NCBI GenBank assembly: GCA_029717555.1
Contig: JAMDHS010000037.1
Coordinates: 62,001-126,000 of the forward strand
Direction: 5' to 3'
Length of the DNA stretch: 64,000 nucleotides
Source of the DNA: Peribolospora baueri
Taxonomy: Eukaryota
Every line of letters starts with the position of its first letter. Position 1 is the stretch's first letter. Positions 13,223 through 35,520 of the stretch are shown here, in pieces. The position numbers were made by a program, and so were the translations under genes. The notes below the pieces were generated by a model. That model was not told the DNA's origin, did not search any database, and saw nothing but the letters and a program-made list of their open reading frames with translations.

Positions 13223-13257
<35 letters not shown>

Positions 13258-17377: not shown

Positions 17378-18471
17378 ATGAGCGAGAACGTGGTGGTGGA
17401 TACCGACAGGATCCGACGCTGGCAGAGGTGCGCAGTGCGGGGGACGTGGGGCTGAGCATGGACAGCGATCGACCGCCATGGTGGCGAGGCGAGCTGACAC
17501 TCTTGCACCCCGCACTGCACCACGCACGGTAAAGGGACCAGCTTGACCTTGGACAATCTCTGCTCGCGACCGATTCACCTCGTCTCTCCCCGCTGCCGCC
17601 AGAACTGCTCATCGCGGGCCTCGACATCACCTACCCCGTCCGACCCTTTCCGAACGCTCCGAAATCGGCCGTCGCCTGCGTCGTCCTCGTCCACTATCCG
17701 TCTCTTCGCGTCCTAGACACCCATTTGGAGGAGGTCGAGGTCTTGGAGCCGTATGTCTCCGGCTATCTTGCTTTTCGTGAAGCGCCCCCTTTGGTTCGGA
17801 CTTTTGAGCGGTGGAAGGAGCAGAGGGCGCGCGATGGCTTGGATGGGCCCGATGTCGTGATGGTGGACGGCAACGGAACGCTGCATCCCAGAGGTGAGGC
17901 GGGGGGGGGAGCGCGATGAATGCTGCCGCTCGAGACTTGCAAACCTGGCCCGGCCCGTCTTTGACCACGCGCGCCGCTCCACAGGCTTTGGCTCCGCATG
18001 TTATATTGGACTCCTGCTCTCCCTGCCCACCATTGGCATTTCCAAGAAGTGGACCGTCTTTCCTGGGAGCGACACCCGCACTGCTGACGGCGTGCGGGCG
18101 CAGTTGGTGCGAGACAAGGCGCAGGCGTGCGAAGGGAAGGAGAAGGAGAAGGAGGATGGCGTGGTCTGGCTGTCCGACGCTCGCGGCGAGGTCCACGGAG
18201 CGGTGAGCGCTGCGCTCGCCGCGGTCGAGCAATGGCCTGTCCGAGTCTTCTGAACCCCCTCGACCTCTGTTCCTTCTCGAAGCAGGCCGTCCTTCCACCT
18301 TCTTCCTCCCATCCCCTCTACGTCTCTCGCGGCCACCTCATCTCCCACACCACCTCAGTCCAGCTCGTTTTAGCCTGCTGCCAGTACCGAATCCCGGAAC
18401 CCGTACGCCAGGCCGATCTGCGAGGCCGCGACTATGTGCGCACCCGTGATGGTGTCGACGGAGCGTCGTAG
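17378..18471 (+). CDS. Endonuclease V (inosine-specific nuclease), about 4 exons
   Basis: Spliced protein MSENV...IAGLDITY, PYVSGYLAFRE, VMVDGNGTLHPR|GFGSACYIG, PTIGISK, PLYVSRGH and YRIPEPVRQAD. The canonical EndoV motifs and acidic catalytic residues are present. Confidence 0.93.
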
Positions 18472-19091
18472 GTCCCCGTTTGGTGCTCCCGTGAGCTAGG
18501 AAACGTGAACACATCGTCCGTCCAGGATCTGGACCAGAGACACTGACTGGCCGAGACTTTTGCGATCGTGAAATACGCGTCGTGTCGTCTGGCATTGCCT
18601 TGCCTATCTGCCGTCCTTGATTTTGTAGCGGTACAGAGTACAGCTGTTCAAACGGCTTGCGAGCGCTCTGCCCCGCCCCAGACATCGTTTATTACGCACT
18701 TGTCCGTGTATGTATACCTTCTTCCAATCAGACAATGAATGGCGTTTGCCTAACACACGTCCCGCCTCGCCGCGCCTTCCGCCTTGCTGGGTAAGGCCGC
18801 AAGAACGCCAGACGCTGATGTCCCCCCGATGCGATCGATGCCCCCGGTCCGGTCCATGCGACACTTGAGCGGCTGCAAGCTCTGAAGGCCGCCCAAGTTC
18901 GCCTCCTCGTCGTCGCTGTTGCCATTTAGCCGGGCATCCGCTTCGGCAGCTCGGCCCGAGGAGCTGGGCAAATAGCCCCGCGCGCGGGGGGGTCGATCGA
19001 GGGCCCGCCCGCCTTTCTGTGCCCCGACATGACAACCATTCTCTTTTCGCGGTTGACGACGCCCGTCCGTCCGACTTGTTTTTTGCCGTAA

Positions 19092-22000
19092 ATGGTTACG
19101 GATCCTGCTAAGCCGACAAAAAGACGTCGTCTGTCTGCGCAGCGGCAGGCCGGTGCGGACGTCGGCGAGGGCAGCAGCGTACCTGGAGGGGAGACGCAAG
19201 CGAAGCCCAAGAGGGTCACACGCGCTTGCGATCAGTGCTGTCAGTGAGTTGGTTGGCGACGACTTTTCATGTCGGCGGCTGAGATCAGAGCGATCATATC
19301 TGACGTTCTCTGCCCCTTAGGAAAAAGGACAAGTGTGATGGGCAGCGTCCCACCTGCTCCATTTGTCACACCACCGGCTCCGTCTGCACGTATGATCGGC
19401 CGACGAAGAAGAGGTGCGGTCCGTCCTGTTCGCAAGTCTGTGTCCGCGCCGTCCGTCGGCTTTGACCGTTCCTCACGCTTGTCTCATCCGTTCATCCAGG
19501 GGGCCCCTCACGGGAAAGTCGTTCTTCCTCCAAGCTCGCATCGAGCGTCTCGAGGCGTTCCTCGGCTTCCTCATCCTCTCTTCGCCATCGCTCCTCGTTA
19601 CCGCCGAAAACCTGCTCGGCCTAAACCCACCTGCAGCGAGTCCAGCCGGCGCGTTGACAGCATATGAAGAGACGCTGGCGGCCAGCAAGCTTTCAGCATG
19701 GACCGTGGAGGAAGAGGTGGCAGTATGGCGGCGCACAAGGGCTAGGGTAGCATTGGAGAAGGCGCGTCCACTACCGGCGATACCGGGGTACGAAGAGGCG
19801 CTGCCGAAAGCAGGACACGCTGGACACCCGCTCGAGACGATCGGTGGTGGTAGCTCTTCCCTGCCTTTATCGAACAACACCCAGTCATCCCCGACACATC
19901 TTGGCCCGTTTGCCAAGTCTCCAGCCCACACGTCCCCATCGTCATCCCTCCACCTGCTCGCCGACGCGTCGGCCAGCCATCCAGCTGTGTCACAATCCGG
20001 TGGAGAGAGCCGACTTTCCTCCGATACCACTGGCGTCGAGGTGCAGGACTCTTTGGTGGACGCATCGTCGGTCGGGGTCGGGGACTATGACGGCGACGAC
20101 GGCCATGACACTGGCCGCTACGAATCATCGGGCGACTTTTGGAAGAATGAGGGCCGTCCTGACGTCCTTCGCTATGCTGGACCTCCGAGCGGCATGTACA
20201 TGCTTCGAGAAGCAGGCGCTCACGACGCGCGAAGCAGGGGTCGTGACTGGACGCATTCCCGGCTTGCAAGTCCCGACAGGGATCTTGGACGATCTGACGG
20301 GCTCTCTGCGACATCGGCGGTCCCGCCGGCAGAACGGGACGGCAGGTCACATGCTGCATCTCTGAGCCTCGCGACCGCCGCATCCCTCGGCAGCGTCCTA
20401 TCTCTACTCTTGGATGAGATTGACACACTCGTCGACGTCTACTTCACCTATTTCCACCCCTTCTTCCCTTTCGTTGACAAGCAGCTCATCCTGCGGTGGT
20501 CAGCTCGACTCGCCTCGGGAGAGCTGCATGCCTTTGAAGACGATGGTGGGGTGTACGTAGCGGCGATGCCGACTTTGCAAAGGGAGCACCACGCACCCAT
20601 CCTTGTCATGATCGCCATCGCCACCGTCGCTTGCGGATACTTTTCGCAGACGCCGTACTCGGATCCGCCAGATACCCTGTTGTCAGGCGAACGCCTTCAC
20701 TACTCCCGCCTAGCCTCCCGTTTCGCGTCAGTATCCCACTCTCAGCTCTTTCACTCCGTCGCCGCACACTCTCCCGACCTCTTCTCTGTCCAGGCCGCCC
20801 TCTTACTTTGTCTCGCCGACTTGCGAGAAGGAAAGGACACCAGGGCATGGGTCCTCTGCGGAATGGCCATCCGTATGGGTCAAGACCTTGGCTTGCATCG
20901 CGCGTCGGTGGAGCGCGAGTCGGCCCCTCCATCGAGGCAGGGCCGTGGCGCTCAGGCGGTCGCACAGGACGTCGGAGCTTCCAAGACGTCTCCTGTAGCT
21001 CCGGAAAAGGCGGCGACGACGAAGGCCAGCTACGCCGTCACTATGCATGCGGACGCACAACAGTCACAACTGTGTCGCTTAACGTGGTGGTCGATCTTTA
21101 CCATAGACGCTGTAATGGCCCTCCAGCTGGGCAGACCCACAGGCATCACCCGCGGCGGGTTCGAGACGGAAATGATCAGCGTGGACGGTCCGGAGGATTG
21201 GGAATTCTGCAAGGTCCCAGTGGAGCAGGTGACGCCGGGATCGAAGCCCCTCCGTGGCCCGGGCCCCACGAAAAGCGTGAGGGCTCAGGCGCTGACTTGC
21301 TTTGCAGCGCTGGCAAGGTTGTCCGTTATCATTTCCGAACTGCACAACCTGGTGAGCGGCGTTTCAAGCTATGTTTAAGGAACTCGAATGTTGACTGGGT
21401 TTTCTCCATGTGTTTGTTAAGTACGCCCTCCCCCCCTCGATAGAGAGACGCGCCCCGACTCTGGTTCCCAAGCTTGTCGGACGCCTCGAAGCATGGAAGA
21501 AGAGCCTCCCCCAGAACCTGCTGGCAGTGATCGATAATTCAAATGCGCCTGCGCAGGAGCAAAGCGGTCTGTCTGGCCTCAGGACGAGACCCGTTCCGCC
21601 AGCCCAGGTCCTCAGTCTGGCAATGCTCTTCCACACTACCATCATCGTTCTCTTCAGGCCTTTGTGAGTGCAGAGATCTAATAGAGTTGGTTTACTTCTT
21701 CTGACTGACATCTCGTGTTGTTTTGGCGACAGCTTGCACACCTCTTCCCTTGGCCACCCTTCCTCTTCTGCCATCGCCATGTGCGAAACGTCAGCCTCGG
21801 CGCTGTCCGCCCTCCTGTCTCGATTCGTTGCCGCCTATTCGCCAGTCCGGGCTCCGCCCTTCTTTTCCTACTTTGCTATGACGTCTTCCACCATCCATCT
21901 TTACAACTTTTGCTTCTCCAAAGCCGAGGAGCGCGGCCGGCGGGCGAGAGAGCTCTTGGAAGGCGTCTTGCAGACCATGAAGCGGGTATCGCCGTATCAA

Positions 22001-22896
22001 GCGGCGACAGCGAGGGTATACCGACTCGTTCGCCGTGCTTTCGACAGCCGACGAGCAGCGATACAGCTCGGCCCTCCGCAAGACCCTGCTGGCGACGGCG
22101 AGCCGCGTCTGACGACGACGACGAGCCAGCTTGCCCTGCCGCCGCTTGACGGCTCAGACGCCGTCACATCATCAGATCTACGCTTCGGTCCACCCCTATG
22201 GTCTCACCCTGATTACGCGGGCGTGGCGGCCTCAGCCGCCAGCGATGATTTCCTGAGTCTCTTTGACTGGAGCCATCCTCCCATTGGACCGCCCTTCTTC
22301 GACCCGTCTCCGCCCTTCCCTTCCCTTGCCGATCGCTCTGTAGCGACCACCCAGGAAACTCCATCTGCTGGCGCACCGTTCAGCTCCATGTCGGTTCTGG
22401 ATCGATTCAGACCTGCTGGCGCACGGCCGGAGGTTGTGGATGGCAACACCGAGGGTCCGGTTCAGGTCAGCTCTGGCGCTAGTCCAGGTCCAGCTCCGGA
22501 CGACGTTTCATTTGCTCCCCCTCCGGGTCGTTTCGAGTGGGCCGGTCTGTGAGTCTTTGACTATGTCTGCGCGTATGACCCGCTGCTCACCTCCTCCCCC
22601 CTCCCCCCGGTCCCCCTTCCCTCGACAGCGACCAAGCACACGTGCTCTATCTCCTCGGGCTTCAACGGCATGCGACGCCTGGCGGCTCGCCAGCAGACGC
22701 AAACACCGACCCGTCCTCCAGTGCTCTTGCGGAAATGGCGGCTCCAATATCGACAGAGCCGGGAACGGCGGCCTCTAGAGCAGCATCGGCAGCGGGCCCA
22801 ACATCGTCCCCACGCGCAAAGGGCGCACCGGCGGATGGGGATTTTGACGGCATGGTGGCCATGTGGTCGCACCGTGGAGGGCGTCTTTCCGGCTGA
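19092..22896 (+). CDS. qutA: Zn2Cys6 quinate-pathway activator (QutA/QA-1F-like)
   Basis: The spliced binuclear cluster RVTRACDQCCQKKDKCDGQRPTCSICHTTGSVCTYDRPTKKRG fits C-x2-C-x6-C-x6-C-x2-C-x6-C. A fungal TF middle-homology region is present (YFTYFHPFFPFV, AWVLCGMAIRMGQDLGLHR, RLTWWSIF, LGRP). A final exon 22629-22896 follows intron 22549-22628. Orthology is inferred from cluster context and remembered similarity to QutA. Confidence 0.85.
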
Positions 22897-23070
22897 ACGG
22901 TATCCCAGAGCGTATCATCATCGTATCGTGTAAAACAGGCGGCGAGCGCAGAGTTTTGGGCTGTGAACGACCTTGGACGACCTGTATTTTGTGTCAGCTA
23001 TAGTTTGTATTGTGATCGTTGCGTGTCACTCGGAACGCCGTGCGTGGGGGCATCGCAGTGGGGAAGATGG

Positions 23071-23088
23071 CGGCTAAAAGTCGTCCCG
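23071..23088 (-). promoter_or_regulatory. Candidate activator site CGGGACGACTTTTAGCCG (CGG-N12-CCG) upstream of the repressor
   Basis: 15/18 identical to the site at 33031; about 130 nt upstream of the repressor ATG. Confidence 0.7.
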
Positions 23089-23218
23089 ACGGCTCCGCGG
23101 CCTCTCCATCATCCGGGGTAATCCTTGATGGCGAAGACGATCTGGCACGCACACGCAGCCCGATCCCTCTCCTTTCTCTCAATTCTTAGCAAGGACGACG
23201 ATCTTACCGTGCGCTATC

Positions 23219-25839
23219 ATGACTGGCGAGGATGTGCTTCATCGACCGGGTCGCTACGCACCGCACGCGACGCTGGTGCTCATCGGCTTCCGAGCAGTGG
23301 GCAAGGTGAGTGAGCAGCCCAACCAGCAACCGTGCGAATGATTAATGACCGCCTCTGAACCGAACGAGCGCTGAGACTGTGCTCGTAGACGACCCTCGGC
23401 CTCATCGCAGCCACCCACATGCGCCGCACCTTCCTCGACGCCGACGCCTACTTCCGCACGAGGACAGGCGTGCCCGTCTCAGAGTACGTCGCTCGCCACG
23501 GCTGGCCCTCTTTCCGAGAGCGCGAGAGCGCCCTGCTCGCCGAACTTTTGCACACTCATCCGACCGGCGCCGTCCTATCCTGCGGCGGAGGCGTAGTGGA
23601 GTCGGCAGAGAGCCGTGAGCTGCTCTGCCAGTACGCTGAACGAAGACCGGTTATCTACATTGTGAGGAGAAAGGAGGAGGTGCTGGCGTATCTCGAAACC
23701 CACCTGGCGGCGCCAGCGTGGAACGAGCACATCCTCTCCGTTTGGGCGCGACGGGAGCCGTGGTATCGACAATGCTCACGGCACGTCTTTGTCAACATGG
23801 CCGAGTCTGGTGCCAGCGTCTTACCCGGACAGCCCCTAGAGCCTCTGGCTCTGAAGAACGTCGAGGAGAGCTTTGTGCGATTTCTGAACGCCATTCTCCC
23901 ACCGGCCGGCAGTCCGTCCTCTTCACGATTCGTCTCCTCGCTACTCTCGAAGCACACCACCACTGTCACCACGTCGTTGGCCGACCTGGACGCTTTGTCC
24001 TTAGCCGCCTTATCCTCGCTGGCCGAGGGAAGTGACGTGGTGGAGCTGCGAGTGGATCTACTCGACTGCATTCGTTTAGCGTCGAGAAATGGAGCCCCCC
24101 AGGCGGAAGAGGGGGACGGCATGGAGGTCGAGCAGGGCGACGACGATCGGGCCCCCGATATCAACTGGGACGTTCTGGCATGGCAGTTCGGCCATCTCCG
24201 GCTGTACTGTCCCGGCGTCCCCGTCCTGTTTACCGTACGATCTCGATCTCAGGGAGGTTCTTTCGACGTCGCAGGCCCCAAGGCGGCGGATCTCTACTCT
24301 CGACTCCTGCGCTTCGGGCTCGCTCTAGGCACCGACATGATCGACGTGGAGCAAGTGTGGTCCGACGCGCTCGTCGCCGACATCGTGACGGCCGCCCGGC
24401 AGAGCGTGGGGACAGCCACCGGCGAGCCGATCGTAGTGGTCAGCAGCTACTTCGATCTCTCTGGAGAGACGGATTGGACAGGAGAGCTGGGCATGCGAGC
24501 GCGATACGAGGCAGGGAAACGAGCGAGAGCAGACGTGGTCAGGTTAGTGAGCGCGGCCGGCGACGTCGCGGACAATTGGCGCCTACTTGCCTTTCAAGCG
24601 ACGGTCAACGCCGCTCCGGCGCCCGGAGGTCGACGAGGTCCGCCACTTGTCGCTTACGATGTTTCTCCGGCAGGTCGACCGTCGCGCCTGTTCAATCCCC
24701 TCCTCACGCCGGTATCCCATCCGGGTGACGTAGGCCCAGACTGCGTGTCGGCACGACAAGTAAAACTTGCCCTCGGTCACATAGGTCTTCTCAAACGGCG
24801 AACGATTTTCCTCGCCGGCCTCGGCGATGGCTCGAGAGGCGCCGTGGCGATGTGCCAAGCGGCCGCGGACGCTGCCGGCCTCCCTGTTCTTGTTGGCGCG
24901 GACCGAGGCAACTTGGGTGCTGTGATAAAAGAGAAGGACTTTGGGGCCATCATGGGTGACCTCACATCAGGGGACGGGGTGCTCTTTGATCACGTCGGCG
25001 AACTAGGCGTTTCCGTCAGCGATCCAGCGCGGCAGGCGCGAGCATTTGACATGGTCGCCCGTCGCTCTGTCGGAGGGACGGAGGAGACATGGTTCGTTGG
25101 TGATTTTCTTCTTCCGTCCGCGATCCAAGCCGTCGTGCGAGCCAATCTGGCGCCCATCAACGCTGTCGGTCCGGGAACGACGGCACTGGTGGTAGATGCC
25201 ATGGAAGGCGAGCATGGGGGGACGGGCTTGACAGTCAAAGCAGTCCTCATGGCGTTGCGGCAGATGGGTGTGCGCAGGGTCGGATGGGCGGACCTGAGTG
25301 ACGGGCACACGGCGGGCGGATCAGAACACATCGCCAAGGACGATGACACTGGATTGCATCGATTCCCGGCTCTCGACGTGGCGGCCGCACTGGCGTTCCT
25401 GCGAGATCGTCCCTCACGGCCTGAAGACGGGATCACCCGCTCCCTGCCGTCGATCATCTTCCTGCTCGACGGCATCAGTGGCCCCAAGACGAGTCTGTCG
25501 GACGCTTTCTTCGCTTCTCCCACCGGCGGCCTCGTTGTTCATCTCCGCCCTTGGCCGTTCGACTGTCGTTCTCGCCCGTCCGACCACCTCCCGCCATTCC
25601 TTCCTCCCTCTATTCTCCCGCGAGGAGAGTCGGAGGCGAGCATGCCTCAGCATGTTCGCGCTCTCACTCGCGGCGCGCCGCCTTTCAAACTAAACCGCGG
25701 CTGGCTTGCCGTCGGCGAAGAGCACGTTCGAGAGGAATGGCTGGTGAATGGCTGGGAATCGATCACAGGCCAAAAAGCTCCAAGATGGAAGATGCGTGCA
25801 GCCGACACCTCTGTACTCTTACAGTCTCCGACATTCTGA
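23219..25839 (+). CDS. qutR: Quinate repressor (QutR/QA-1S-like): shikimate kinase-like, type I dehydroquinase-like and degenerate shikimate dehydrogenase-like domains
   Basis: Motifs TLVLIGFRAVGK|TTLG (P-loop, split by an intron), GWPSFRERE, CGGGVVE, ELRVDLL, VLFTVRSRSQGG, DMIDVE and GRPSRLFNPLLTPVSHP. The domain order matches the C-terminal three domains of AROM, with catalytic residues substituted. Confidence 0.85.
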
Positions 25840-25927
25840 TGATGATAATTATGACTACTACTACTACGACGACGATGATGATGATGTTGCTCAAACTCAA
25901 GATGAATGAACCTAGCCTCCATCACTT

Positions 25928-27177
25928 TCACTTTCCCCAGCCCTCGTCTGGCTTGCTTTGAATGTCTCCCATGTTCTCGATCAGCCGCCGGGCCTGCTCT
26001 TCGACCGCCGCGCCAAGTGGACTCTTGTCGGCGGCAGCGGCGGCGGCCTCTTCGGAAGCCTCGCCGAGCGCCCACATGCGTTGTTGCGAGAGGCCTTGCT
26101 CGATCACTGCGTAAAGGCGGAAGTCAAGAGGCGAGGTGAGCTGGACGGACGGTCATGTGCGAGAGGCGGACAAGGCACCGACTTACTCGCGACGATGCCG
26201 CCGACCTGGCTCCACCCGTATCGGCCAGCCATTTGGAGGATGGGCGTCATCCGAGGCTTGTAGCACATTTCCAAGAAGAGACGTTTGGGTGGGAGTGGCA
26301 ATCCATCGTCGCCCTCCGGTCGAGACGCGGCAGAGAGCGGGGGCAGGGAGAAGAGTTTCTCCGCCAGGGCGTACACCGCCTTTTCCCCCTCCGTCTGTGG
26401 TTCGACGGCGGGGATGGCGCCCACGCCGAGGACGACGGGCCGCTCGGCGAGCTCGTCGTCCGAAGGAAAGTCATGTGCGCGCTCGAGGATGCGAATGTCG
26501 AGTTCGGGGAAGGCGGCTTTTACAGCCTCCATTTCGGACCGGTCTCGGTTCAAGAGGTAGATGCGATCGAGGTTTAGCTTGCGGAGAGCGTAGCAGGTCG
26601 AGCGAGCGGTGCCTCCGCCGCCGATGAGAAACGCCGAGTACTTTCGGGGTTGAAAAGCAGAAGAAGGGGTAGAGATGAACGTGGAAGGAGGTAAGGAGGA
26701 GTCAATGGCGAGTTGTCGGAGCAAGGCGTGTCGGACGCCGAGGTGGTCAGTGTTGGTTCCGATGAACCTCTTGCTCCCGGTCTCCGCCTGCCGCTCGACG
26801 ACAATGGTATTGACGGCGCCGATCGACCTCCCGGCGTCGGTCAATCCGTCGAGGATCGCCCCGGGCTGGCCAGCGGTAGAAGCGACGGCGACCTTGAGCG
26901 GCATGGTCACCGCTGAGCCGGCGAAGTATTCATCGTCGCGGACCGAGGCACGAAAGTGAGGGTTGTCCACGGTCTTGGTATCGACGAGGTCAAAGACACC
27001 CAGGGGAGGAGCGGCCGAGCCTGAGGAGGCTGTCTGGGCGTCGTGAAGGGCGCGGAAGATGGCATTGTGGAGGAAGGGAGAGGCGGAGTGAGAGATGGGG
27101 TAGCCGTAGAGGTGGAAGCGTCGCGTCGCCTGGTCGTGCGCGTGCTCCTCGAGCGTGGCCGTAGCGGTGGTGGTCAT
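25928..27177 (-). CDS. qutB: Quinate/shikimate 5-dehydrogenase (QutB/QA-3), 2 exons
   Basis: Motifs GYPISHSASP, GSAVTMPLK, GAVNT, GTNTD, IGGGGTAR and EMCYKP. The second exon reads MIEQGLSQQRMW and ends at a TGA at 25928-25930. Confidence 0.9.
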
Positions 27178-27362
27178 GCGAGCGCAGCGAAGAGATGTCT
27201 GGCGGCGCGAAAGGAAGAAGGAAGGACGACTGAGAGCGAGGAAAGCGAGGGAAGGAGGCAGATGGCGGCGACGAGGCAAGACGTATGTGTATTTCTGAGG
27301 GAGAGTGTTCACCGTGCGCTGCTGCGGCACCCGGGCCTTCCTTTCTTTCCCCGCACTGTCGG

Positions 27363-27380
27363 CGGCAAAACGTTCGGCCG
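27363..27380 (-). promoter_or_regulatory. Candidate activator site CGGCCGAACGTTTTGCCG in the divergent qutB/qutG promoter
   Basis: CGG-N12-CCG, 12/18 identical to the 30024 site, lying almost midway between the two ATGs. Confidence 0.55.
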
Positions 27381-27546
27381 CGCGCCGACGGCAGGTGGTC
27401 GCGTGTCGTCGCTACGCGTGTCGTCGCTCCGTCAGTCAGTCCGTCGGTCAACCCCCGTCGTCGCCGTTCCGTCAGTTGATCCGTTTCCTAACCCCTCGGC
27501 TCTCGCTCGTCCAACCTCCTCCCACCCACGAACGAGCGACGACGCC

Positions 27547-28968
27547 ATGCCATCTGACGCCGCGCTCGAGCACCTGGCCCCCGGCGTGGACCTCCCCGCC
27601 GTCCACGATCACATGGTCGAGCTCGCACTGACCGCCGGCGCCTTTCTGCGTGCCAACGCGCTCGCCCGTACTCAGTTCTCTTCCTCGGCCTCCGCTTCTG
27701 CACTGGCGCTCAACGTCCAGGACAAGGAGAGCTCGGTGGACATTGTCACAGAGGCCGACACCGAGGCCGAGCGCCTGATCCTGAACGGCATCCGAGAGCG
27801 ATGGGCGGCGCACGGGCACAAGGTCATTGCCGAAGAGACCTACTCTGGCGGCAAGGACAAGCGGTTCCTCTTGGACGACGTGGGTGCCTGCCCTCGCCTT
27901 TGTGGTCTCCTTTTGAAAGCCTCTGGTTGACACTTTCTTCGCGCCTCCGTCCAGGCCCCGACATGGATCGTGGATCCCCTAGACGGCACGGTCAACTTTG
28001 TATGTCGCTCTCACCGCGTTCCCACGGACCCGAGAGGCCCACCGCTTACCGTTGCTCCTCCTCTTGCAGACCCACCTCTTCCCCCTCGTTTGTGTCTCCA
28101 TTGGCTTTTGCGTCAACAAAGTGCCCCTTGTCGGCGCCGTCTACGCTCCAGTCCTTAGTGGACTGAGTCCTGCCGCGGGCGGCACCTTGTTCTCCGCCGT
28201 CCGAGGCAAAGGCGCGTGGCAGTCCTATCCCCCTCCGAACGCGTCCGGTAGCGGCCTCGATCATTCGGCCGTCAGGCTGTCCGCCCTTTCCTCCCCTCCT
28301 CCTTCTCTCTCCGTCCCGCCTCTCCGTCTTCCCCTCGCTCCGCCGAAACCTCTGCCGCGCGAAGCGCCAAAGGGCTGCCTTTTCGCCTCGGAATGGGGCA
28401 AGGACAGACGGGATGGGCCAGAGTCGAACCTACCGCGCAAGGTCGCCAGTTTCTGGAACATGGCGGCCGAACTCGGCGGCCGCGGCGGTCGTGGAGGGCA
28501 CGTGAACGGCGTGCGGAGCCTGGGCAGCGCGGCGCTGGACATGGTCCTCTGTGCGACGGCTGCGGTGGATATTTTTTGGGAGGGTGGCTGTTGGGAGTGG
28601 GTGAGTCGTCTCGTCTTCGCACTCGCCCCCGCTCCCACGTTCGCCCAAGCTAAGAGGGGGTCGTTTTGTTTTGTTTCGTTTCGTTTTTCAAGGACGTGTG
28701 CGGCGCCATGGCGATCCTCCACGAGGCTGGAGGCGTCGTCTTCGACGCCAACCCATCGCCGTCGGCGTCTTTACCGACGACGCCGCTTCAGGAGGCCTCG
28801 CTCGGCGGACGACGATATCTGGCCATTCGCGCGTGCGCTCCGACGGTCGACGAGGGGGGCAGGGAGGTGGAGACGCCGAGACAAGCGCAGGAGAGGGTGG
28901 CAAGAGAAGTGTACAAGAGGGTGGAGGCGCTGACCTACGTGAGGGAGTGCGTCACATATCCTCCTTGA
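27547..28968 (+). CDS. qutG: Inositol monophosphatase-family protein (QutG/QA-X), multi-exon
   Basis: Motifs VDIVTEAD, IAEET, WIVDPLDGTVNF, GVRSLGSAAL and WEGGCWEW|DVCGAMAILHEAGG. Confidence 0.9.
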
Positions 28969-29083
28969 AGGACGCAAGGTTGGAATGTACACAAACTTGA
29001 GACGGACGGTCGCGATGCTGGAATGTACGGACTCGAGTCGGACAGACGCGATGGAGGGGAGTGAGCTCCGTTTCCACCTCGGG

Positions 29084-29741
29084 TCACTTCTTCTTGAGCC
29101 CGTTGTCAAGCACGTGTGAAAGGGCGGCGTGATAGCCGTAGGCGCCCATGCCCATCAGGACGGCGGCGGCCTTGTCGGAGAAGAAGGAGTGGTGTCGGAA
29201 GGGCTCCCGAGCGTGCGGGTTGGAGCAGTGGACTTCGACGAAGGGGATTTCGACGCCGAGCAGGGCGTCGCGAAGGGCGACAGAGGTGTGCGTCAAACCG
29301 GCCGGGTTGATCTGCCGGCCGTGGTAGGAAGAAATAAGGGAGCGGTGGGCCCGGGGGCGTCAAGGGGCTGGCCACTGGCCACTGGGCGACGGACGGCACG
29401 GGACGGACTCACGATGATGGCGTCGACGCCGTTTCCCTTGGCCTGGTGGATGCGGTCGATGATCGCGCCCTCGTAGTTGCTCTGGAAAGCGGCCAAGCGA
29501 GCGCCTCGCTCTTCGGCCAGCTCCTTTGCTCGACGCTCGACGTCGTGGAGCGTATCGTGGCCGTAGAGCTGGGGCTCGCGCGTGCCCAAGAGGTTCATGT
29601 TGGGCCCGTTGATGAGCTGCAGCGCGGAAGGAGAGATCGGTCGTCGAGCTCAGCAGATGCCCATCGTTGTCGTTGTTGTCGTCGTCGTTGCGCTGACGGG
29701 CAGAGCCGGCCAGCGTCGCTCACCAGAACGTTTTTCGCCAT
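29084..29741 (-). CDS. qutE: Catabolic type II 3-dehydroquinate dehydratase (QutE/QA-2), 3 exons
   Basis: Motifs [57 protein letters not shown] and [19 protein letters not shown]. Confidence 0.95.
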
Positions 29742-30023
29742 CTTCGATCCTCAGCGCTGTTGGTCCGAGCTGATGACGACTTGGGCACGGATGCGAGGGT
29801 GGCCATCGCAGGCGCTTTTGAGCGCCGAGAGTGCCCCGCTCACTGTTTCATCTTTTGTCCGGGGTGCGTCGACGAAGCTCGTGGGCCGTCCTGGACATGA
29901 CATGCCCTCCGTTCGTTCTCGCTCGCTCCCTGCCCACCGGTGCGTTCGTTCACCCGGCGACGACGACGATGACGACGACGTTGTGGTCAACGGATGCTGC
30001 GCAGAGCGGAAGGTGGAAGAAGG

Positions 30024-30041
30024 CGGATCGACTTTCTGCCG
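30024..30041 (+). promoter_or_regulatory. Candidate activator site CGGATCGACTTTCTGCCG in the divergent qutE/qutD promoter
   Basis: 15/18 identical to the 33031 site, lying near the midpoint between the two ATGs. Confidence 0.7.
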
Positions 30042-30359
30042 CGGGCGGCCGCAGCCGATGGCGGCGGCAGGCTGTCGCTTCGGGCGTCGGGTTCAGAACG
30101 GTCGCCCGCCAGGGCACCGACGGGGACAAGGCCGCCATGCCAAACGCCAAGCTGGCGACGAGGACGGGCTCCTCTCCAGTCTTCCGTCGGGCGTGCGGGG
30201 GGAAGGAAGGAAAGGAAGAATTGCGGGGTAGTCGCTTTCGCTAGCCGAGCCATCGATGGATCGATGGAACTGAACTGATCCGGCTCGTCATCTTCCCGGC
30301 TATATCTAACTTGCGCCTCGTCGCCCTCGTCGCCCTTCCCCCTCCCACCACCTTCCCTC

Positions 30360-32460
30360 ATGGTCAGCCTTCGACGAAAAGATGACGGCAGGACGCCGGC
30401 GGCCGTCTACAACTTTCGCGTGTGGGCCATGGCCGCCATCGCGTCCATGGCTTCCGTCATGATCGGGTGCGTCCAAGCGAAGGCGGCCCCCCGCTCGCCG
30501 GCTCAAGCTCACCCTCTCCTCCCCCTTTTTTCTTTCTAGGTACGACTCGGCCTTCGTCGGTGGCACTCTCGCCCTCCAGTCTTTCGTCAACGAGTTCGGG
30601 GCGCTCACTGGCACTACGCAAGCCAACATCGTCTCCGTGTACCAGGTCGGCGCCTTCTTCGGCGCCTTCTTCGGGTACCCGCTCGGCCACTTCCTTGGCC
30701 GCAAAAGGGGCCTCTTCTTCTGCGCCGCCTTCTTCACCATCGGCGCCGCCGTCATGTGCGCCACGAACAAGTCCACTGGCCTCGCTCCCCTGTACGCCGG
30801 TAGGACGCTCGCCGGTCTCGCCATCGGTTCCGCCTCCAACCTGACGCCCATCTACATCGCCGAGATCGCGCCGACGGCCATCCGAGGACAGCTCGTCGGC
30901 GTTTACGAGCTCGGATGGCAGATTGGCGGTCTGGTCGGCTTCTGGATCAACTACGGCGTGGATCAGACCATGGCGCCGAGCCATAGTGAGCACCACCGGC
31001 CGCGTTGGACCGTCGCCTCCGTTCGCAGTCGCTCATAACCCTCCGCTCCGAACGCAGCCCAATGGCTCATCCCCTTCGCCATTCAGCTCATCCCCGGCGC
31101 TCTCTTCTGGATCGGCACCCTCTTCCTTATCGAATCACCTCGTTGGCTCCTCACTAGAGGCCGCGAAACGGAAGCGATGGCCGCGCTTTCAAGAGTCCGC
31201 AACCTGCCCTCCACAGATGCCTGGCTCGTCGACGAGCTCGCGACCATGAACGCCGCCGTCCTCGACGAGCGCCGTCTCACCGGCGATGGCTTCTGGGCGC
31301 CCTTCCGAGAGACCTTCCTCGTCCCTCGCATTCTCCGCCGCGTCCTCCTCGGCTGCTCTCTCTTCATCTGGCAGAACGGCTGTGGTATCAACGCGATCAA
31401 CTGTGAGCATCTTCCACGCGCACGCACGCACGCGCCCCTATTCTTCTGCTCACCGCCTTCGTTCGTCGTTCTGCGCAGACTACTCTCCCACCGTCTTCAA
31501 GTCGATCGGCATCTCTGGTACCAGCACATCCCTTCTTTCCACCGGCTTGTTCGGCGTCATCAAGACCGTCGGCTCCATCGTCTGGATCCTCTTCCTGATT
31601 GACCACGTCGGCCGACGGATCCTGCTCATCGTCGGCGCCCTCGGCGGCTCCTTCTGCATGTACTACATCGCTGCCTACCTGGCCATATCCAAGGTTGGCC
31701 ACCGCCCGCCGTCTTCGTCCCTCTCGCCCGGCGGAAAGTCCGCCTTGGCCTTTTTCTACATCTGGACTGTTTTTTACAGCCCGACATGGAACGGAACCCC
31801 TTGGGTGTGAGTAACTCGGGCAGGCTGTGAGATCAAGTCAGCCTCTGTCGCACGGCACGCCGTCTCACCGCCCTGCGCTCCTTTACCTTCGCTCGCAGCC
31901 TCAACTCGGAAATGTTCATGCAGCAGAACCGCACCCTTGCACAGGCGTGCGCAGCCGCATCGGTGAGTGACTGGGTGCTCTGTTGACGCGCTTGATGATC
32001 ATCTCGTACCTCGTCGGTCGCGTCGTTGGTTCTGACGTTGGTCCGAACGATTTGCCTCCATGGGCCGTAACAGAACTGGCTGTTCAATTTCTGCATCGCG
32101 AGGTTCACACCTCAAATGTTCGCCGCGATGGGATACGGCGTGTACCTCTTCTTTGCCTCGCTCATGGTCCTCGCCGCCATCTACGTCTACTTTCTCGTCC
32201 CGGAAACAAAGTGCATCCCGCTAGAGGAGATGGATAGGCTCTTCTCGGCGCCCGTGCGTCCGTGGAAGGCTCACGCGTGGCTCACCGCCGAGCTCGCCTC
32301 CCGGCCTCACCTGAGCGGCGGTGCCGCGCCAGGCCTCTCTCAGGGCCAAGGCAGCCAAGGCGACCCGGAGGCGGGGAATGGGTACGGCGAGACGAGCGGG
32401 CCAGGCGACGAAAAGGAGGGGAAGGAGGCGATGACGGCGCACGTGGAGCGCATCGCTTGA
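30360..32460 (+). CDS. qutD: Quinate permease (QutD/QA-Y; MFS sugar porter family), multi-exon
   Basis: The N-terminus RTPAAVYNFRVWAMAAIASMASVMIG|YDSAFVGGTLALQSFVNEF is QutD-like. Also present are PIYIAEIAPTAIRGQLVGVYELGWQIGGLVGFWINYG, ESPRWL, WQNGCGINAINYYSP, WNGTPWV and PETK. Confidence 0.92.
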
Positions 32461-33030
32461 CCACCAGCTAGCTCGACCTCACGCTTCTTCGGAGTCCGGG
32501 TGCCTTTTTTCACGGATCATGTAATCTTATTTTCTTTTGGTACGCGGTAGTCTACCTGCCTGACTTGCTTGGCGCACTCGCTCGCTAGCTGGCTGCGTTC
32601 CCGGGCCGCACGCACGCACGTCGTTCGTTCGTTCGTTGGCCGTGGGAACTGTTTCGTACCAACAAGCACCGAGAGGTGCCTTGCCTGCATTCGACAAAAA
32701 GAAAAATCGGCAAAGAGAATGAATAAGTCCGCATTGTTCTGAAGAGGCGACTGCGGGCGGAAACGTTTAGGCGGTCTGTGTGTGAACTTTGCCCGCCTTG
32801 CCTTGTCTTCCGTCGTGAGACATGGCATGGCAGTTCGTCGAGTCGACGGAGAGGGGGAAGGTGCTGTGGCGCCTTGAGCTCGGCCGGCGAGCTACGTGGC
32901 CGACAGGTGTGCGTTTGTCTGTCTGTCCGGTGCGCGCAGTGGTTTTTGCTTGTCCTTCGTCATCCGCGATGACGGCGAGACACTCGAACCATCACCGTCT
33001 GTCGTCGCTCATCGGACGCGCGGGCAGGGG

Positions 33031-33048
33031 CGGGACGACTTTCTTCCG
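33031..33048 (+). promoter_or_regulatory. Candidate activator site CGGGACGACTTTCTTCCG upstream of qutC
   Basis: CGG-N12-CCG with the shared CGACTTT core. A second CGG-N12-CCG without the core follows at 33050-33067. Confidence 0.7.
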
Positions 33049-33508
33049 GCGGAGTCCGTCTGGTCCGTGTCACCTGGCGCGTCTGCGGATGATCGTTGTC
33101 TACGGGCCGTCATTGTTCCTCCACCTCTAGCCTCTCGCTCTCGCTCTCCAAGCGCTTCGCCTCGCCTATGCTTTCGCTCTGCCTCACCGGCCGTGGCGGC
33201 TCCGATGTGCCATCGGCGGCGAGGGCGGGGGTAGGGACGGTGGGAAGAGGACAACAGTGCAGCGCAGAGAGCGAGCGTCGCTGGCCCAGGTCGTGGATAC
33301 GATAAGTATCGCAGACAGCGACGCTCCCAACCAACGTCGCCGCCCTCCATATCATATCGTCTGTGCACCGTCACCTGGATAGCAAGCACCTCATCTCATC
33401 TTGGCCCTCATCTTCATCTCCAATCGGCTCATACCGCTTGCCGTGGCAGTCATCGCCGTCGGACGTCCCGTCTCAACAAACTCACCCTCCGCTCCCCCAT
33501 CGCCTACC

Positions 33509-34843
33509 ATGTCCTTTCCACTACCGCCTTTCTCCATCGCCACCATCTCCCTCGGCGACTGCGCTCATCACGCGTTGGACGACAAGTTGCGCGTCGTCGC
33601 TGAAGCGGGCTACCGCGAGGTCGAGGTCTTCCAGGCCGACCTGGACGCTTTCGCGCGGTCACCTCGCTTCGAGCACATCCCTCTTGCCTCCTACTCCCGG
33701 CCGTCATGCCTGCCGGAAGCGAGAAGCGACGCAGAGTACCTCAGCCGTCCGGAAGCGTGGAACGCCACGGCCCACTTGGCCGGCGAGGCGCTGCGCTACC
33801 TCCCCCGCGAGCTGGCCGCCGCCAAGGAGATCGGTGCGCTGGCCGAGCGGCTGAACGTCCGGATCAACTCGCTTCAACCTCTCCGCGACTTTGAAGGTTG
33901 GATCAAGCGGGAGAAGCGGGACGAGGTGATGAAACACGGCCACAGTCGATTCGCCGTCATGCGCGAACTCCGCACCGACCTTCTCCTCATCCCTTCTTCA
34001 TTCCACGTCCCCGGCCGTCCCGAGGCGGACGCCGAAGGAGGCGTGAGCGGCGACGACGAGACGGTGGCGCGGGACCTGGCCGAGCTGGCCGACTACGCCG
34101 CCGCCTTCTCCTCTCCCATGCGCATCGCCTACGAGGCTCTCGCCTGGGGCGGCACCGCGTTCACCTGGCGAGCGGCGTGCAAGAGGGTGTCGCTGGCGAA
34201 CCGGCGCAACTGCGGGCTCGTCATCGACTCATTCAACCTCGTTGGCAGAGAGTGGGCCGACCCGGCGAACGCGTCCGGAAGCGGCCAAGTGGACACAAAC
34301 AGGAAAGAGACGTGGGAGATGGCCGGGGCGACAGTGGACGCGAGGTTGGCCGCCAGTCTGGCCGCGCTCAAGCGTGAGGTGCCCATCGAGCGCATCTTCT
34401 CGTTCCAGGTCGCCGACGCCGCCTTGGTCGACCCGGCGGAGGTGACGCCGGCCGAAGGGGACCCACGGCCATCGCGTCTGCTGTGGAGCAGGAGCAGCCG
34501 ACTGTTCCCGCTGGAGAAGGACCGACGGGCGTATCTGCCCATCGCCGACGTGTGCCAGACGCTCCTTGAGATGGGCTTCACCGGCGCTTGGAGTCTGGAA
34601 GTGTTCAACAAGAGCTTGGCGAGCGATGACCCAGATACGGTCCGACATCACGCCGATCGAGGCATGCGCGGCCTGTCGAGGTTATGGGACGAGGTGAGGA
34701 GAAGGGCGGGCGCGGGTGGTGGTGAGGAGGAGGAGGAGAGCCCATCCACCGCCCCCACCGCCTTCATCGCCTTTCATGTCGACGCCAGGCCGTTTTCGAT
34801 GGACGCCGCGGAGAGCGAGTTGGTGCCTGTCGTGGCGAATTGA
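33509..34843 (+). CDS. qutC: 3-dehydroshikimate dehydratase (QutC/QA-4; xylose isomerase-like TIM barrel), apparently intronless
   Basis: Motifs SIATISLG, LQPLRDFEG, AYEALAWG, VIDSFN, FQVADA, WSRSSRLFP and SLEVFN, which include the metal-ligand positions of the family. Confidence 0.88.
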   Translation: MSFPLPPFSIATISLGDCAHHALDDKLRVVAEAGYREVEVFQADLDAFARSPRFEHIPLASYSRPSCLPEARSDAEYLSRPEAWNATAHLAGEALRYLPRELAAAKEIGALAERLNVRINSLQPLRDFEGWIKREKRDEVMKHGHSRFAVMRELRTDLLLIPSSFHVPGRPEADAEGGVSGDDETVARDLAELADYAAAFSSPMRIAYEALAWGGTAFTWRAACKRVSLANRRNCGLVIDSFNLVGREWADPANASGSGQVDTNRKETWEMAGATVDARLAASLAALKREVPIERIFSFQVADAALVDPAEVTPAEGDPRPSRLLWSRSSRLFPLEKDRRAYLPIADVCQTLLEMGFTGAWSLEVFNKSLASDDPDTVRHHADRGMRGLSRLWDEVRRRAGAGGGEEEEESPSTAPTAFIAFHVDARPFSMDAAESELVPVVAN

Positions 34844-35520
34844 GGATCGATCGATCGCATGCCGTCCGTCGTTTGTTCGTTTCTCTGGTCGCCGTGCCGT
34901 GACAAGTATTTCTTCCCAGTCCGTGAGAATGCATACCACCATCCAAGTGCGCGAAGTTATGATCATCCAAAGAGACGAGACGAGACGAGACGAGACAAGA
35001 CGAGACGCACGACGAGAGTTACCTTTGTGCGAGTCGGAGCGAGTTGAAATACGCCGACCCTTTCTCAGTAGTCCTTTTCGCGACATCACAATGCAATGAC
35101 TCCCACGTCTTCTCCACCTTCCTTCGAATCAAATTCCGCATGGTATGGACTTGTACGCAACACGCCCCCAAGGAGGCGGCCGGCCACCGACGGCGACGGG
35201 CGAGTTCAAAGACGGAGAAGAACATGCATGGAAAAAAGGTCGACTGGAGACCGACGACGAGCAAGCGAGTGGACCATCGAAGGGGAGAGTAACCAGAAAA
35301 AAATAACTTGGGGCGAGCGAGCGAATGGGGCCGACAGGCGAAACGACGAACGAATAGAATGGAGACGAGAAGACCACGGAAGAAAGAGTTGCCAAAGAGA
35401 ACCAGACCAGATAAAGTGAGCGTCCCGGGGCGACCACGCGAAGAACCAAGAGAAGAGAACGAGGGCTAGTCAGGAAAGGAGTGAATATCGTCTATGTGTA
35501 TGTCCAACCGCGACCTCGGG

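Follow-up and report, generated by a model that had tools for sequence, protein, structure and literature searches.

An apparently complete qa/qut-type quinate utilisation cluster in a basidiomycete, probably of vertical descent

Introduction

The qa genes of Neurospora are arranged in the order x, 2, 4, 3, y, 1S, 1F. The roles of these genes are taken here from the available text of PMC12610400 and PMC3114802. As the former describes in the part available, cluster organisation varies among the three ascomycetes studied, and further permutation is therefore to be expected in other lineages. The locus described here is, with good probability, a qa/qut-type quinate/shikimate utilisation cluster of a basidiomycete, vertically inherited within Basidiomycota.

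Results and Discussion

Gene content and gene models

The window, that is the whole stretch of 64,000 nucleotides analysed from Peribolospora baueri contig JAMDHS010000037.1, contains seven contiguous genes between the activator ATG (19092) and the final base of the qutC stop codon (34843), all of them intron-bearing except for qutC. Families were initially assigned by running Pfam-type profiles on stop-to-stop ORFs. The gene models are sequence-based predictions from a codon-usage/GT-AG dynamic-programming script, with the zinc-cluster exons of the activator assembled by hand and the 3' end of the repressor adjusted. The features are as follows:

17378-18253, + strand: left neighbour, an unrelated endonuclease V gene
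19092..22552, + strand: activator, Zn2Cys6 transcription factor (zinc cluster, Zn_clus, Fungal_trans), 1052 aa, 5 exons (19092-19243, 19321-19413, 19500-21351, 21422-21663, 21733-22552; script and manual model)
23219..25839, + strand: repressor, AROM C-terminal-like (SK-like, DHQase-I-like, SDH-like), 845 aa, 2 exons (23219-23305, 23389-25839; 3' end placed by family consensus)
25928..27177, - strand: qutB/qa-3-like quinate/shikimate dehydrogenase, 389 aa, 2 exons (27177-26187, 26106-25928; 27177 is the first ATG in the ORF)
27178..27546, no strand: divergent promoter region qutB/qutG, 369 bp between the two start codons
27547..28968, + strand: qutG/qa-x-like, inositol monophosphatase family, 394 aa, 4 exons (27547-27879, 27955-27999, 28070-28600, 28693-28968)
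29084..29741, - strand: qutE/qa-2-like type II 3-dehydroquinase, 149 aa, 3 exons (29741-29724, 29616-29413, 29311-29084; manual and script models identical)
29742..30359, no strand: divergent promoter region qutE/qutD, 618 bp between the two start codons
30360..32460, + strand: qutD/qa-y-like permease, sugar-porter MFS family, 558 aa, 6 exons (30360-30466, 30540-30985, 31058-31402, 31479-31806, 31899-31962, 32074-32460)
33509..34843, + strand: qutC/qa-4-like 3-dehydroshikimate dehydratase, 444 aa, single exon
35521-39392, - strand: right neighbour, a large gene without family match

The preliminary description of this DNA had listed seven contiguous genes at 19092-34843 in the order activator(+), repressor(+), qutB(-), qutG(+), qutE(-), qutD(+), qutC(+), with divergent qutB/qutG and qutE/qutD pairs, the activator and repressor in tandem and no unrelated gene in between: all of this is borne out by the profile matches and gene models. 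Profile searches recovered all seven families in one unbroken run with one gene each, all seven spliced frames are open, the 16 introns (69-111 nt) are of the GT-AG type, and hallmark motifs are seen in the enzyme translations. The spacers of 666, 618 and 1048 bp displayed no coding potential (script scores of 3 or less, versus 41-122 for the seven genes); the scan covered these three long spacers, the other three being of 369, 115 and 88 bp. The claim of a full qa/qut gene set holds at the level of predicted families, and the locus is apparently a complete and intact copy of the Neurospora/Aspergillus quinate-utilisation cluster.

In the activator, a zinc cluster of the form CX2CX6CX6CX2CX6C, read from the sequence, spans exons 1-2; exon 2 matches Zn_clus (1.3e-7) and ORF 19396-21378 (+) matches Fungal_trans (1e-19). 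Its matches in the Atlas are generic Fungal_trans clusters only, and we assign the protein to its family, as a candidate counterpart of QutA/QA-1F. The qutB ORF (26104-27411, -) matches Shikimate_dh_N (2.6e-11), the gene also matching TIGR01809 Shik-DH-AROM (1.8e-28); the top PDB matches are AROM SDH domains (1.5e-20) and the translation shows the catalytic Lys and the Asn-Thr-Asp motif, with specificity for quinate/shikimate presumed. Due to its division by two introns, qutE was missed in the ORF-based family scan: in the spliced model, successive exons match DHquinase_II (PF01220; 3.1e-21 and 4.9e-27) at profile positions 4-70 and 71-137, supported by an NCBIfam type II DHQase match and by 37 type II dehydroquinases in the PDB at 1e-10 or better. 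The qutC ORF (33383-34843, +) matches AP_endonuc_2 (1.4e-17), with further matches to NF042435 QuiC (3.9e-30) and PDB 5hmq (3.4e-19); among named proteins those of Tilletia come nearest, with 40-45% identity in the search and 46% in the alignment used for the tree.

The exon-by-exon models of qutD and qutG yield continuous Pfam profile coordinates. In qutD, Sugar_tr extends over four exons (14-166, 169-273, 276-372, 395-452), this family also being found on three stop-to-stop ORFs (31039-32460, +), and TIGR00879 matches at 6.4e-33; judged by its gene context, the permease would be specific for quinate. In qutG, Inositol_P covers three exons (profile positions 14-76, 100-219, 220-249) and was likewise found in the stop-to-stop ORF scan (27025-28933, +), whilst the PDB matches are inositol monophosphatases. 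According to the available part of PMC12610400, the function of qutG is unknown even in model fungi and its orthologue in A. niger is not induced by quinate, so that qutG may be a passenger among the seven genes.

In a related organism from the same study (organism B), a single contig of 26.7 kb holds the entire cluster with unchanged gene order and differs from the window by 381 substitutions over 17 kb. Among the 40 substitutions listed, 28 fall in the 495 bp upstream of the activator start codon and the other 12 in the next 750 bp: the first coding stretch has diverged less than the spacer ahead of it. Among the 12 indels listed, the two in coding sequence are both of 3 bp, whilst five of the ten in spacers are not multiples of three.

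The repressor resembles the C-terminal part of AROM

The repressor ORF (23389-25839, +) matches SKI (1.3e-25) and DHquinase_I (5.3e-27), a Pfam pattern confined to these two families that recurs in 15 of the 21 relatives scanned; the named relatives are drawn from all three basidiomycete subphyla. Its top PDB sequence match is AROM (6hqv, 5.9e-45), and the AlphaFold model (pLDDT 75.6, pTM 0.78) predicts the fold of the three C-terminal AROM domains, with TM scores against the SK+DHQase+SDH fragment 7tbv of 0.67-0.69 by query and 0.76-0.78 by target. Phe takes the place of the catalytic His, and Arg that of the Lys, in the DHQase-like domain, and the SDH-like domain has lost its Lys and Asn-Thr-Asp; the P-loop GKTT is retained. 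All five AROM rows in the alignment, in contrast, keep the DHQase His/Lys and the SDH Lys/Asn-Thr-Asp. Based on sequence and model, we propose that this protein represents a copy of AROM's SK-DHQase-SDH portion that has no enzymatic activity left. The SDH-like domain is more degenerate here than in the sampled ascomycete repressors, where the SDH Lys and Asn-Thr-Asp are retained, and ligand sensing may hence differ.

Host placement and descent

A basidiomycete-type genome had been suggested at the outset, and the BMS1 tree agrees, grouping the window with the sampled Ustilaginomycotina (UFboot 98 / SH-aLRT 95); among the 120 BMS1 matches listed, none of the named proteins is from an ascomycete. 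Placed by this gene sequence, the host is a basidiomycete that branches beside the sampled Ustilaginomycotina. In the repressor tree (32 rows), QutR-like proteins split from AROM (support 98), and a basidiomycete clade holding the window repressor (99) stands apart from an ascomycete clade (100) that includes a Fusarium protein named "Quinate repressor protein" by its depositor. Within the former, the window is sister to a Tilletia/Acaromyces group (95), a position that mirrors that of the host in the BMS1 tree. The tree for qutC is in weak agreement with that of the host (81/67); both qutC and the repressor lie on long branches. Constraining the window repressor to the ascomycete clade was rejected by the AU test (delta lnL 62.7, p-AU 7.8e-12), and the best matches of the repressor and qutC are basidiomycete proteins at 33-46% identity. 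GC3 ranges from 0.66 to 0.85 in the cluster genes and from 0.67 to 0.81 in the flanks, with GC and introns also resembling those of the flanking genes, in line with the earlier view that a recent transfer is unlikely. Since the repressor tree and, weakly, the qutC tree follow the host and base composition matches, the cluster appears old and not recently transferred, and its inheritance within Basidiomycota looks vertical. Of the three origins originally proposed, namely an ancient reshuffled cluster, independent re-assembly and an old transfer, the repressor tree and AU test favour the first and disfavour the last.

Independent re-assembly would mean that genes already old in Basidiomycota were gathered separately in this lineage, selection for co-regulation having recreated the ascomycete pairs. 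The closest repressor-like and qutC-like proteins of Atractiella rhizophila are encoded on different contigs (140,263 and 87,187 bases), showing that clustering is not universal; gene order varies among ascomycetes, with the A. niger genes split over three places (PMC12610400, available part), and a preprint, as far as its accessible text goes, reports that catabolic clusters are much scarcer in Basidiomycota than in Pezizomycotina (10.1101/184242). However, four of the five A. niger adjacencies recur here (A-R, B-G, E-D, D-C), for which p is 0.025 under random order, these adjacencies being taken from gene numbers in the available part of PMC12610400 as order alone. The recurrent qutB-qutG pair is hard to attribute to selection given that the function of qutG is unknown, and overall we regard re-assembly as unlikely. 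The congruence of the repressor tree, and weakly of the qutC tree, with the host tree fits a vertically inherited cluster and re-assembly alike.

The regulators could instead form a GaaR/GaaX-type or TanR/TanX-type module that neighbours the enzymes by chance, or the cluster could serve another hydroaromatic substrate. Four such modules, alike in their repressors, occur in ascomycetes (PMC10512348, in the text available), and basidiomycetes have paralogues as well (Meredithblackwellia with two, Tilletia horrida with two distinct proteins). As GaaX and TanX are not among the proteins identified in our repressor tree, orthology to QutR in particular, as opposed to membership of the wider repressor family, is argued from gene neighbourhood. 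That neighbourhood, however, joins the regulator pair to all five structural genes with no gene between, and among the ascomycete modules only the quinate one is linked to its enzymes in the account available from PMC12610400, making this explanation improbable.

We consider it very improbable that the cluster was acquired, long ago or recently, by transfer out of an ascomycete. The cluster was characterised in ascomycetes, such clusters have often been suggested to move (10.1101/184242, accessible text), and the two Aspergillus qutC-like proteins adjoin a basidiomycete group in the qutC tree, so that individual transfers within this family are conceivable; the repressor nevertheless falls within the basidiomycete clade to the exclusion of the ascomycete grouping, and the best matches, composition and introns described above all oppose it. 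A transfer predating the divergence of the basidiomycete subphyla is possible. Finally, that the cluster is a decaying, non-functional relic, as the long branches of qutC and the repressor might suggest, is scarcely credible given seven open frames, the hallmark motifs of the enzymes and, relative to organism B, reduced divergence in the first coding stretch and solely in-frame coding indels among those listed.

Promoter regions and proposed working

Comparison of the five promoter regions revealed no specifically shared motif, with none in the qutB/qutG region either; the qutE/qutD region contains GAC/GTT-type simple repeats, and the sole recurrent word of the promoters is a GAC-type repeat that occurs throughout the window. 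None of these five regions contains a site of the QA-1F type known from Neurospora: the window holds four matches versus 7.6 expected, three outside the cluster and one within the qutB coding sequence.

The working that we propose is drawn by analogy with Neurospora and Aspergillus, which is also how we reason about substrate, induction, repressor-activator binding and operator sequence. Quinate would be imported by the permease QutD, and QutB would oxidise both quinate, giving 3-dehydroquinate, and shikimate, giving 3-dehydroshikimate; QutE, the type II dehydroquinase, would produce 3-dehydroshikimate and the dehydratase QutC protocatechuate, which genes outside the window would use up. Control of expression would act after translation: the Zn2Cys6 activator would be kept inactive by the repressor until the latter binds quinate or a pathway intermediate, upon which the released activator would act at both divergent promoters (qutB/qutG and qutE/qutD), at the qutC promoter and probably also at the promoters of both regulators.

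Comparison with known systems

The Neurospora qa cluster (qa-1F, qa-1S, qa-3, qa-x, qa-2, qa-y, qa-4) comprises the same seven families, one each, and is also contiguous (about 16-17 kb), with adjacent activator and repressor and with divergent pairs. It shares two of six adjacencies with the present cluster when the order given in the Introduction is used, whereas here the regulators stand in tandem, introns are far more numerous (16), the promoters lack the QA-1F-type site and the repressor has lost its SDH catalytic residues.

The QUT genes of Aspergillus, which form a cluster in A. nidulans, represent the same gene families. In A. niger (11035-11039 and 08520/08521; qutR/qutX, dqdA, qupA and dsdA plus qdhA/NRRL3_08521, from the available part of PMC12610400), the activator-repressor, qutB-qutG and qutE-qutD-qutC blocks match those found here, but are spread over three locations where all seven genes are together in our cluster; the block order differs, and a qutH-like (Gfo/Idh/MocA) gene is missing from the cluster here. 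The arrangement had been described as new: the order does indeed differ, but with most A. niger adjacencies retained in another order its novelty is modest, and the weight placed upon it is not supported as stated.

GaaR/GaaX and TanR/TanX of A. niger likewise pair a Zn2Cys6 activator with an adjoining, presumably non-catalytic repressor resembling the C-terminal half of AROM (PMC10512348, available text); these pairs are unlinked to their target enzymes in the available account of PMC12610400, whilst the pair here is joined to quinate-pathway enzymes. AROM itself (6hqv, 7tbv, 7u5s) is alike to the repressor in the sequence and predicted fold of its SK, DHQase and SDH domains, the last of which is also matched by QutB, but the repressor lacks the DHQ synthase and EPSP synthase parts, has replaced the DHQase/SDH catalytic residues that AROM keeps and forms a clade of its own. 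Bacterial qui/qsu clusters perform the same three-step chemistry under the control of unrelated bacterial regulators; the dehydratase domain of bacterial QuiC (5hmq) is matched by QutC, whereas the bacterial enzyme has an additional HPPD-like domain (Pfam columns). The basidiomycete cluster thus widens the reach of a textbook system, without being a new system itself.

Gene content and gene models

The window consists of fungal DNA with introns and a GC content of 0.55–0.68 (per 2 kb). A Pfam scan of ORFs taken from stop to stop in the 19–35 kb region detected six of the seven protein families that a preliminary description had claimed for the quinate cluster: Fungal_trans, SKI with DHquinase_I, Shikimate_dh_N, Inositol_P, Sugar_tr and a xylose-isomerase-like TIM barrel. 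The seventh, the type II dehydroquinase encoded by qutE, is split by two introns and was found instead by reading the minus strand, which completes the set. Gene models were obtained with a gene finder that combines codon log-odds and GT-AG introns by dynamic programming, nine long ORFs from the window serving as training set: its dehydroquinase model agreed exactly with the one made by hand, but it overlooked the activator's small exon with the zinc cluster, which was placed manually. A terminal intron of the repressor (58 or 268 nt) proposed by the gene finder was rejected, since the unspliced end carries the C-terminal motif of the family. In the final models the profile coordinates (Pfam and NCBIfam) are contiguous from exon to exon, and the splice sites are therefore well supported; the cluster contains 16 introns of 69–111 nt, and the three long spacers scanned showed no coding potential. 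The coordinates, gene order and strands first described for the cluster all proved right by the Pfam scan and the gene models, and the region is made up as follows:

17378–18253, + strand: endonuclease V gene, three exons, PF04493 on two of them (6.8e-21 and 9.4e-6)
19092–34843: quinate cluster; activator (+), repressor (+), qutB (-), qutG (+), qutE (-), qutD (+), qutC (+)
35521–39392, - strand: large predicted gene (~1200 aa), coding score 231, right neighbour

The activator combines a zinc cluster with Fungal_trans and lies 666 bp upstream of the repressor; its motif CX2CX6CX6CX2CX6C runs over exons 1 and 2, with a Zn_clus match on exon 2 (1.3e-7). It could be placed to family level, the Atlas matches being to generic clusters only, and a BLASTP comparison of its middle part with the N-terminal half of AROM, the pentafunctional shikimate-pathway protein, gave no similarity (best E 0.73). 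QutB is a member of the SDH family, with the Lys and the Asn-Thr-Asp motif present in the predicted translation. Inositol_P matches on three exons of qutG, and its PDB matches are IMPases, the family to which qa-x/qutG belong. For qutE, PF01220 extends across both main exons (profile positions 4–137 of 138), in agreement with NCBIfam and PDB, whilst qutD encodes a complete sugar-porter protein with a putative role as quinate permease. QutC matches a TIM-barrel family, NF042435 (3.9e-30) and PDB 5hmq (3.4e-19), its score lying under the NF042435 cut-off because that model describes a longer bacterial fusion.

The endonuclease V gene directly to the left is unrelated to the cluster. To the right, the 1054-aa ORF of the large predicted gene returned no Pfam family, and its product contains low-complexity Pro/Gln/Ser/Ala stretches. 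No protocatechuate-pathway genes were seen in the whole window; a TauD-family dioxygenase (47241–48575, + strand) and a glyoxal-oxidase-like gene (51373–54547, - strand) lie further right, 12–20 kb from the cluster.

Promoters, spacers and the copy in a second organism

The cluster has five promoter regions, amongst them the divergent qutB/qutG (369 bp) and qutE/qutD (618 bp) spacers, and the symmetric QA-1F-type site GGNTAA N4 TTANCC, with two mismatches or fewer, is absent from them; over the 64 kb it occurs four times against 7.6 expected. The best dyad in the promoters (half-sites of 3–4 nt, spacers of 0–15) was found six times against 0.7 expected, which is unconvincing after thousands of patterns, and of the 8–11-mers, only a GAC-type repeat is common to all five promoters, and it is itself spread window-wide. 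The GAC/GGC-type trinucleotide word GGCGACGACG (one mismatch or fewer) has 107 matches across the whole window where 15.8 would be expected, in coding sequence as well as spacers (for example 13226–13256, 29956–29980, 41369–41384 and 56517–56532).

All of the window is present in two runs of organism A, its probable source. A related copy of the cluster occurs in a second organism from the same study (organism B): about 45% of the sampled words of the window are present in two of its runs, and a single contig of 26.7 kb spans the cluster completely and with unchanged gene order, as compared over 18500–35500. The two copies differ over this interval by 381 substitutions (2.2%). Positions were listed for 40 of the 381 substitutions, 28 of these falling in the 495 bp upstream of the activator ATG and the other 12 in the 750 bp that follow, and for 12 of the 70 indels, two of which lie in activator exon 3 (each 3 bp) and ten in spacers, where five of the ten are not multiples of three. 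Small as the sample is, these differences fit purifying selection on the gene models.

The largest structural differences within the cluster are two replacements in organism B: at 23055–23058, in the activator-repressor spacer, 91 other letters stand in place of two window bases, and at 29053–29082, just past the qutE stop codon, 110 other letters stand in place of 28. Reads of both runs pile up at 29664–29690 and 29955–29985, on the same simple repeats as those of the trinucleotide word. The repressor and qutB have convergent stop codons, and the 88 bp separating them (25840–25927) have a GC content of 39%, against about 62% regionally; this stretch probably serves both genes as a terminator or polyadenylation region, and it has a 9 bp deletion in organism B.

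Fold and lost residues of the repressor

The repressor is a homologue of the three C-terminal AROM domains without the two N-terminal ones, and in the PDB its sequence is best matched by AROM proteins (6hqv, 5.9e-45). An AlphaFold model computed from a 19-row alignment (pLDDT 75.6, pTM 0.78) can be superposed on a Candida Aro1 fragment comprising SK, DHQase and SDH (7tbv; TM 0.67–0.69 by query, 0.76–0.78 by target) and also on full AROM: the C-terminal domain of the repressor, undetected by Pfam, is thus SDH-like in its predicted structure.

The residues compared here, using an alignment with AROM and a 26-row family alignment, have an established catalytic status in type I dehydroquinases and shikimate dehydrogenases. 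In the DHQase-like domain of the repressor the catalytic His is replaced by Phe and the Schiff-base Lys by Arg, and in the SDH-like domain the Lys and the Asn-Thr-Asp motif are lost, whilst the kinase P-loop GKTT is retained; all of these residues are intact in the five AROM rows. Judged by its sequence, the repressor of the window would therefore be non-catalytic in the manner of the QA-1S/QutR family, for which loss of catalysis is stated as a working hypothesis in PMC10512348. The lost residues are not the same throughout the family: amongst the three named ascomycete rows of repressor-like type the SDH Lys and Asn-Thr-Asp are kept (3/3) and the P-loop Lys is mostly lost (2/3), whereas Ustilaginomycotina-type rows show the reverse pattern, with the P-loop kept and the SDH residues lost. 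The predicted dead sites within the repressor family hence differ by phylum, and this difference is real in the aligned rows. With the P-loop retained and the SDH-like domain gutted, sensing of the inducer may differ from that of ascomycete QutR.

Relatives of the repressor

A word-indexed search with the repressor returned 44 relatives of 33% identity or less, and an exhaustive HMMER search 1628, of which 77 scored 1e-30 or better and the best were 36–42% identical. Three cluster look-ups gave names to 30 proteins. The nearest named relatives of the repressor belong to Acaromyces, Tilletia horrida, Rhodotorula araucariae, Atractiella, Leucosporidium, Meredithblackwellia, Phenoliferia, Stygiomarasmius and Violaceomyces, and the named relatives span all three basidiomycete subphyla. 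SKI and DHquinase_I alone, as in the repressor of the window, were found in 15 of the 21 relatives scanned. The basidiomycete relatives carry the depositor labels 'SKI-domain-containing protein', 'aldolase' or 'hypothetical', and our results suggest that such entries are AROM-derived repressors.

A tree of 32 rows was computed from the repressor of the window, six AROM C-terminal parts and a choice of 25 relatives, 15 of which are named. The repressor-like proteins stand apart from AROM (support 98) and include an ascomycete clade of six rows (100), which includes a Fusarium venenatum protein named 'Quinate repressor protein' by its depositor, and a basidiomycete clade of 19 rows (99), in which the window is sister to a Tilletia/Acaromyces group (95). 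Violaceomyces and one of the Meredithblackwellia proteins (Meredithblackwellia_b) form a separate deep clade (100) with the DHQase Lys kept. Some genomes encode more than one AROM-derived repressor-like protein (Tilletia horrida, P0243/P0248; Meredithblackwellia eburnea, P0254/P0259), so that several activator-repressor modules may exist outside the ascomycetes.

Host placement and descent of the cluster

The host was placed with the C-terminal 637 residues of BMS1, which have 1514 relatives with a best identity of 54%. The named proteins amongst the 120 matches listed include none from an ascomycete, and all are from basidiomycetes save for a Mucoromycota species, used as outgroup. In both a quick tree (39 rows) and a careful one (24 rows) the window is the sister of all Ustilaginomycotina sampled, with a support of 98/95 for this grouping in the careful tree, which bears out the earlier assignment of the host to the basidiomycetes. 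As the placement uses one gene with rows taken from the top matches, and its class sampling is limited (Malasseziomycetes, Moniliellomycetes, most Exobasidiomycetes and Wallemiomycotina were left out), we state it cautiously: the host can safely be described as a basidiomycete that branches on the stem of Ustilaginomycotina or close to it, and the protein collection contains no close relative.

The window occupies the same position in the repressor tree as the host does in that of BMS1. Constraining it to group with the ascomycete clade worsened the repressor tree by 62.7 log-likelihood units (p-AU 7.8e-12, for a group chosen after the tree was known). For qutC, the 25 best matches are single-domain proteins (15 from named basidiomycetes, two from Aspergillus and eight unnamed), with Tilletia the best at 40–45%, and the remainder are of the longer bacterial type. 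In a first qutC tree long branches were joined and relationships stayed unresolved; a tree rebuilt after omission of the long rows unk_P0188 and Puccinia coronata weakly supports (81/67) the window as sister to a Ustilaginomycotina group. In GC and GC3 the cluster genes do not depart from the range seen in the flanking genes. A very old transfer of the cluster is possible as an alternative to vertical descent; taken together, the repressor and qutC trees, the AU test and the composition argue for vertical inheritance. The ancient, vertically inherited origin, one of the options initially raised, is thereby strengthened, chiefly through the repressor tree and AU test, with composition and, weakly, qutC in accord.

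Gene order and comparison with known quinate clusters

The cluster consists of three blocks: activator-repressor, qutB-qutG and qutE-qutD-qutC. The window has four of the six adjacencies of what we take to be the A. nidulans order, and two of the six of what is presumably the Neurospora order. According to PMC12610400, A. niger dsdA (qutC), qupA (qutD), dqdA (qutE), the activator and the repressor are consecutive genes (11035–11039), and qdhA (qutB) adjoins the qutG orthologue (08520/08521) on another chromosome. Four of these five adjacencies are common to the window, against 1.4 expected at random (P(≥4) = 0.025). The arrangement, initially described as new, is thus new as a permutation, but its blocks are familiar. 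That the blocks recur in A. niger and the window favours common ancestry over an independent assembly. Recurrence of the qutB-qutG pair stands out, as no role of qutG is known and quinate does not induce it in A. niger (PMC12610400); this recurrence hints at a real role of qutG, although no phenotype is known in model fungi.

A metagenome scan with the repressor alignment as query yielded 80 loci, which were compared with the seven cluster proteins by tblastn: at 77 the repressor and qutB matches lie side by side and mark the housekeeping AROM gene, and at three the repressor matched alone, with the activator, qutG, qutE, qutD and qutC matched at none of the 80. Adjacency judged by accession and locus tag could be compared in Atractiella alone, where the repressor-like and qutC-like genes lie on different contigs.

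A full-text search of partial coverage found no report of a quinate cluster with its regulators in a basidiomycete. In the accessible parts of eight sources (PMC12610400, PMC10512348, PMC10512361, PMC3114802, 10.1101/184242, 10.1101/2023.06.06.543907, PMC4466345 and PMC9027234), both quinate clusters and the activator-repressor module are described from ascomycetes only, and basidiomycete papers, to the same extent, mention quinate permeases only. The preprint 10.1101/184242 assigns the great majority of its catabolic clusters, the quinate dehydrogenase class included, to Pezizomycotina and far fewer to Basidiomycota; its supplements lay outside the search and may list a quinate cluster from a basidiomycete.

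The qa/qut-type cluster of this basidiomycete is real and complete, and apparently functional as far as its genes can be read. As the qa/qut system is already known, what is added amounts to two modest points, the antiquity of gene pairs and a differently degenerated repressor. Only tentatively, as a reading that we hold to be possible rather than favoured, do we propose that the whole unit (the regulator pair, qutG/qa-x beside qutB, and the qutE-qutD-qutC block) predates the split of Ascomycota and Basidiomycota, that basidiomycete repressors may sense the inducer through another domain than ascomycete QutR, and that activator and repressor form an orthogonal pair. If true, the unit would rank among the oldest conserved metabolic gene clusters of eukaryotes, and the window would be its first complete basidiomycete example; given an operator unlike that of Neurospora, activator and repressor would make up a system orthogonal by nature and, were that operator found, could serve as another Q-system-like switch, independent of the first. 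We argue here that the cluster is ancient, as are several of its gene pairs, and is neither an invention of Pezizomycotina nor a transfer, and the textbook eukaryotic catabolic cluster with its activator-repressor logic is extended, all seven parts together, over the divide between Ascomycota and Basidiomycota.
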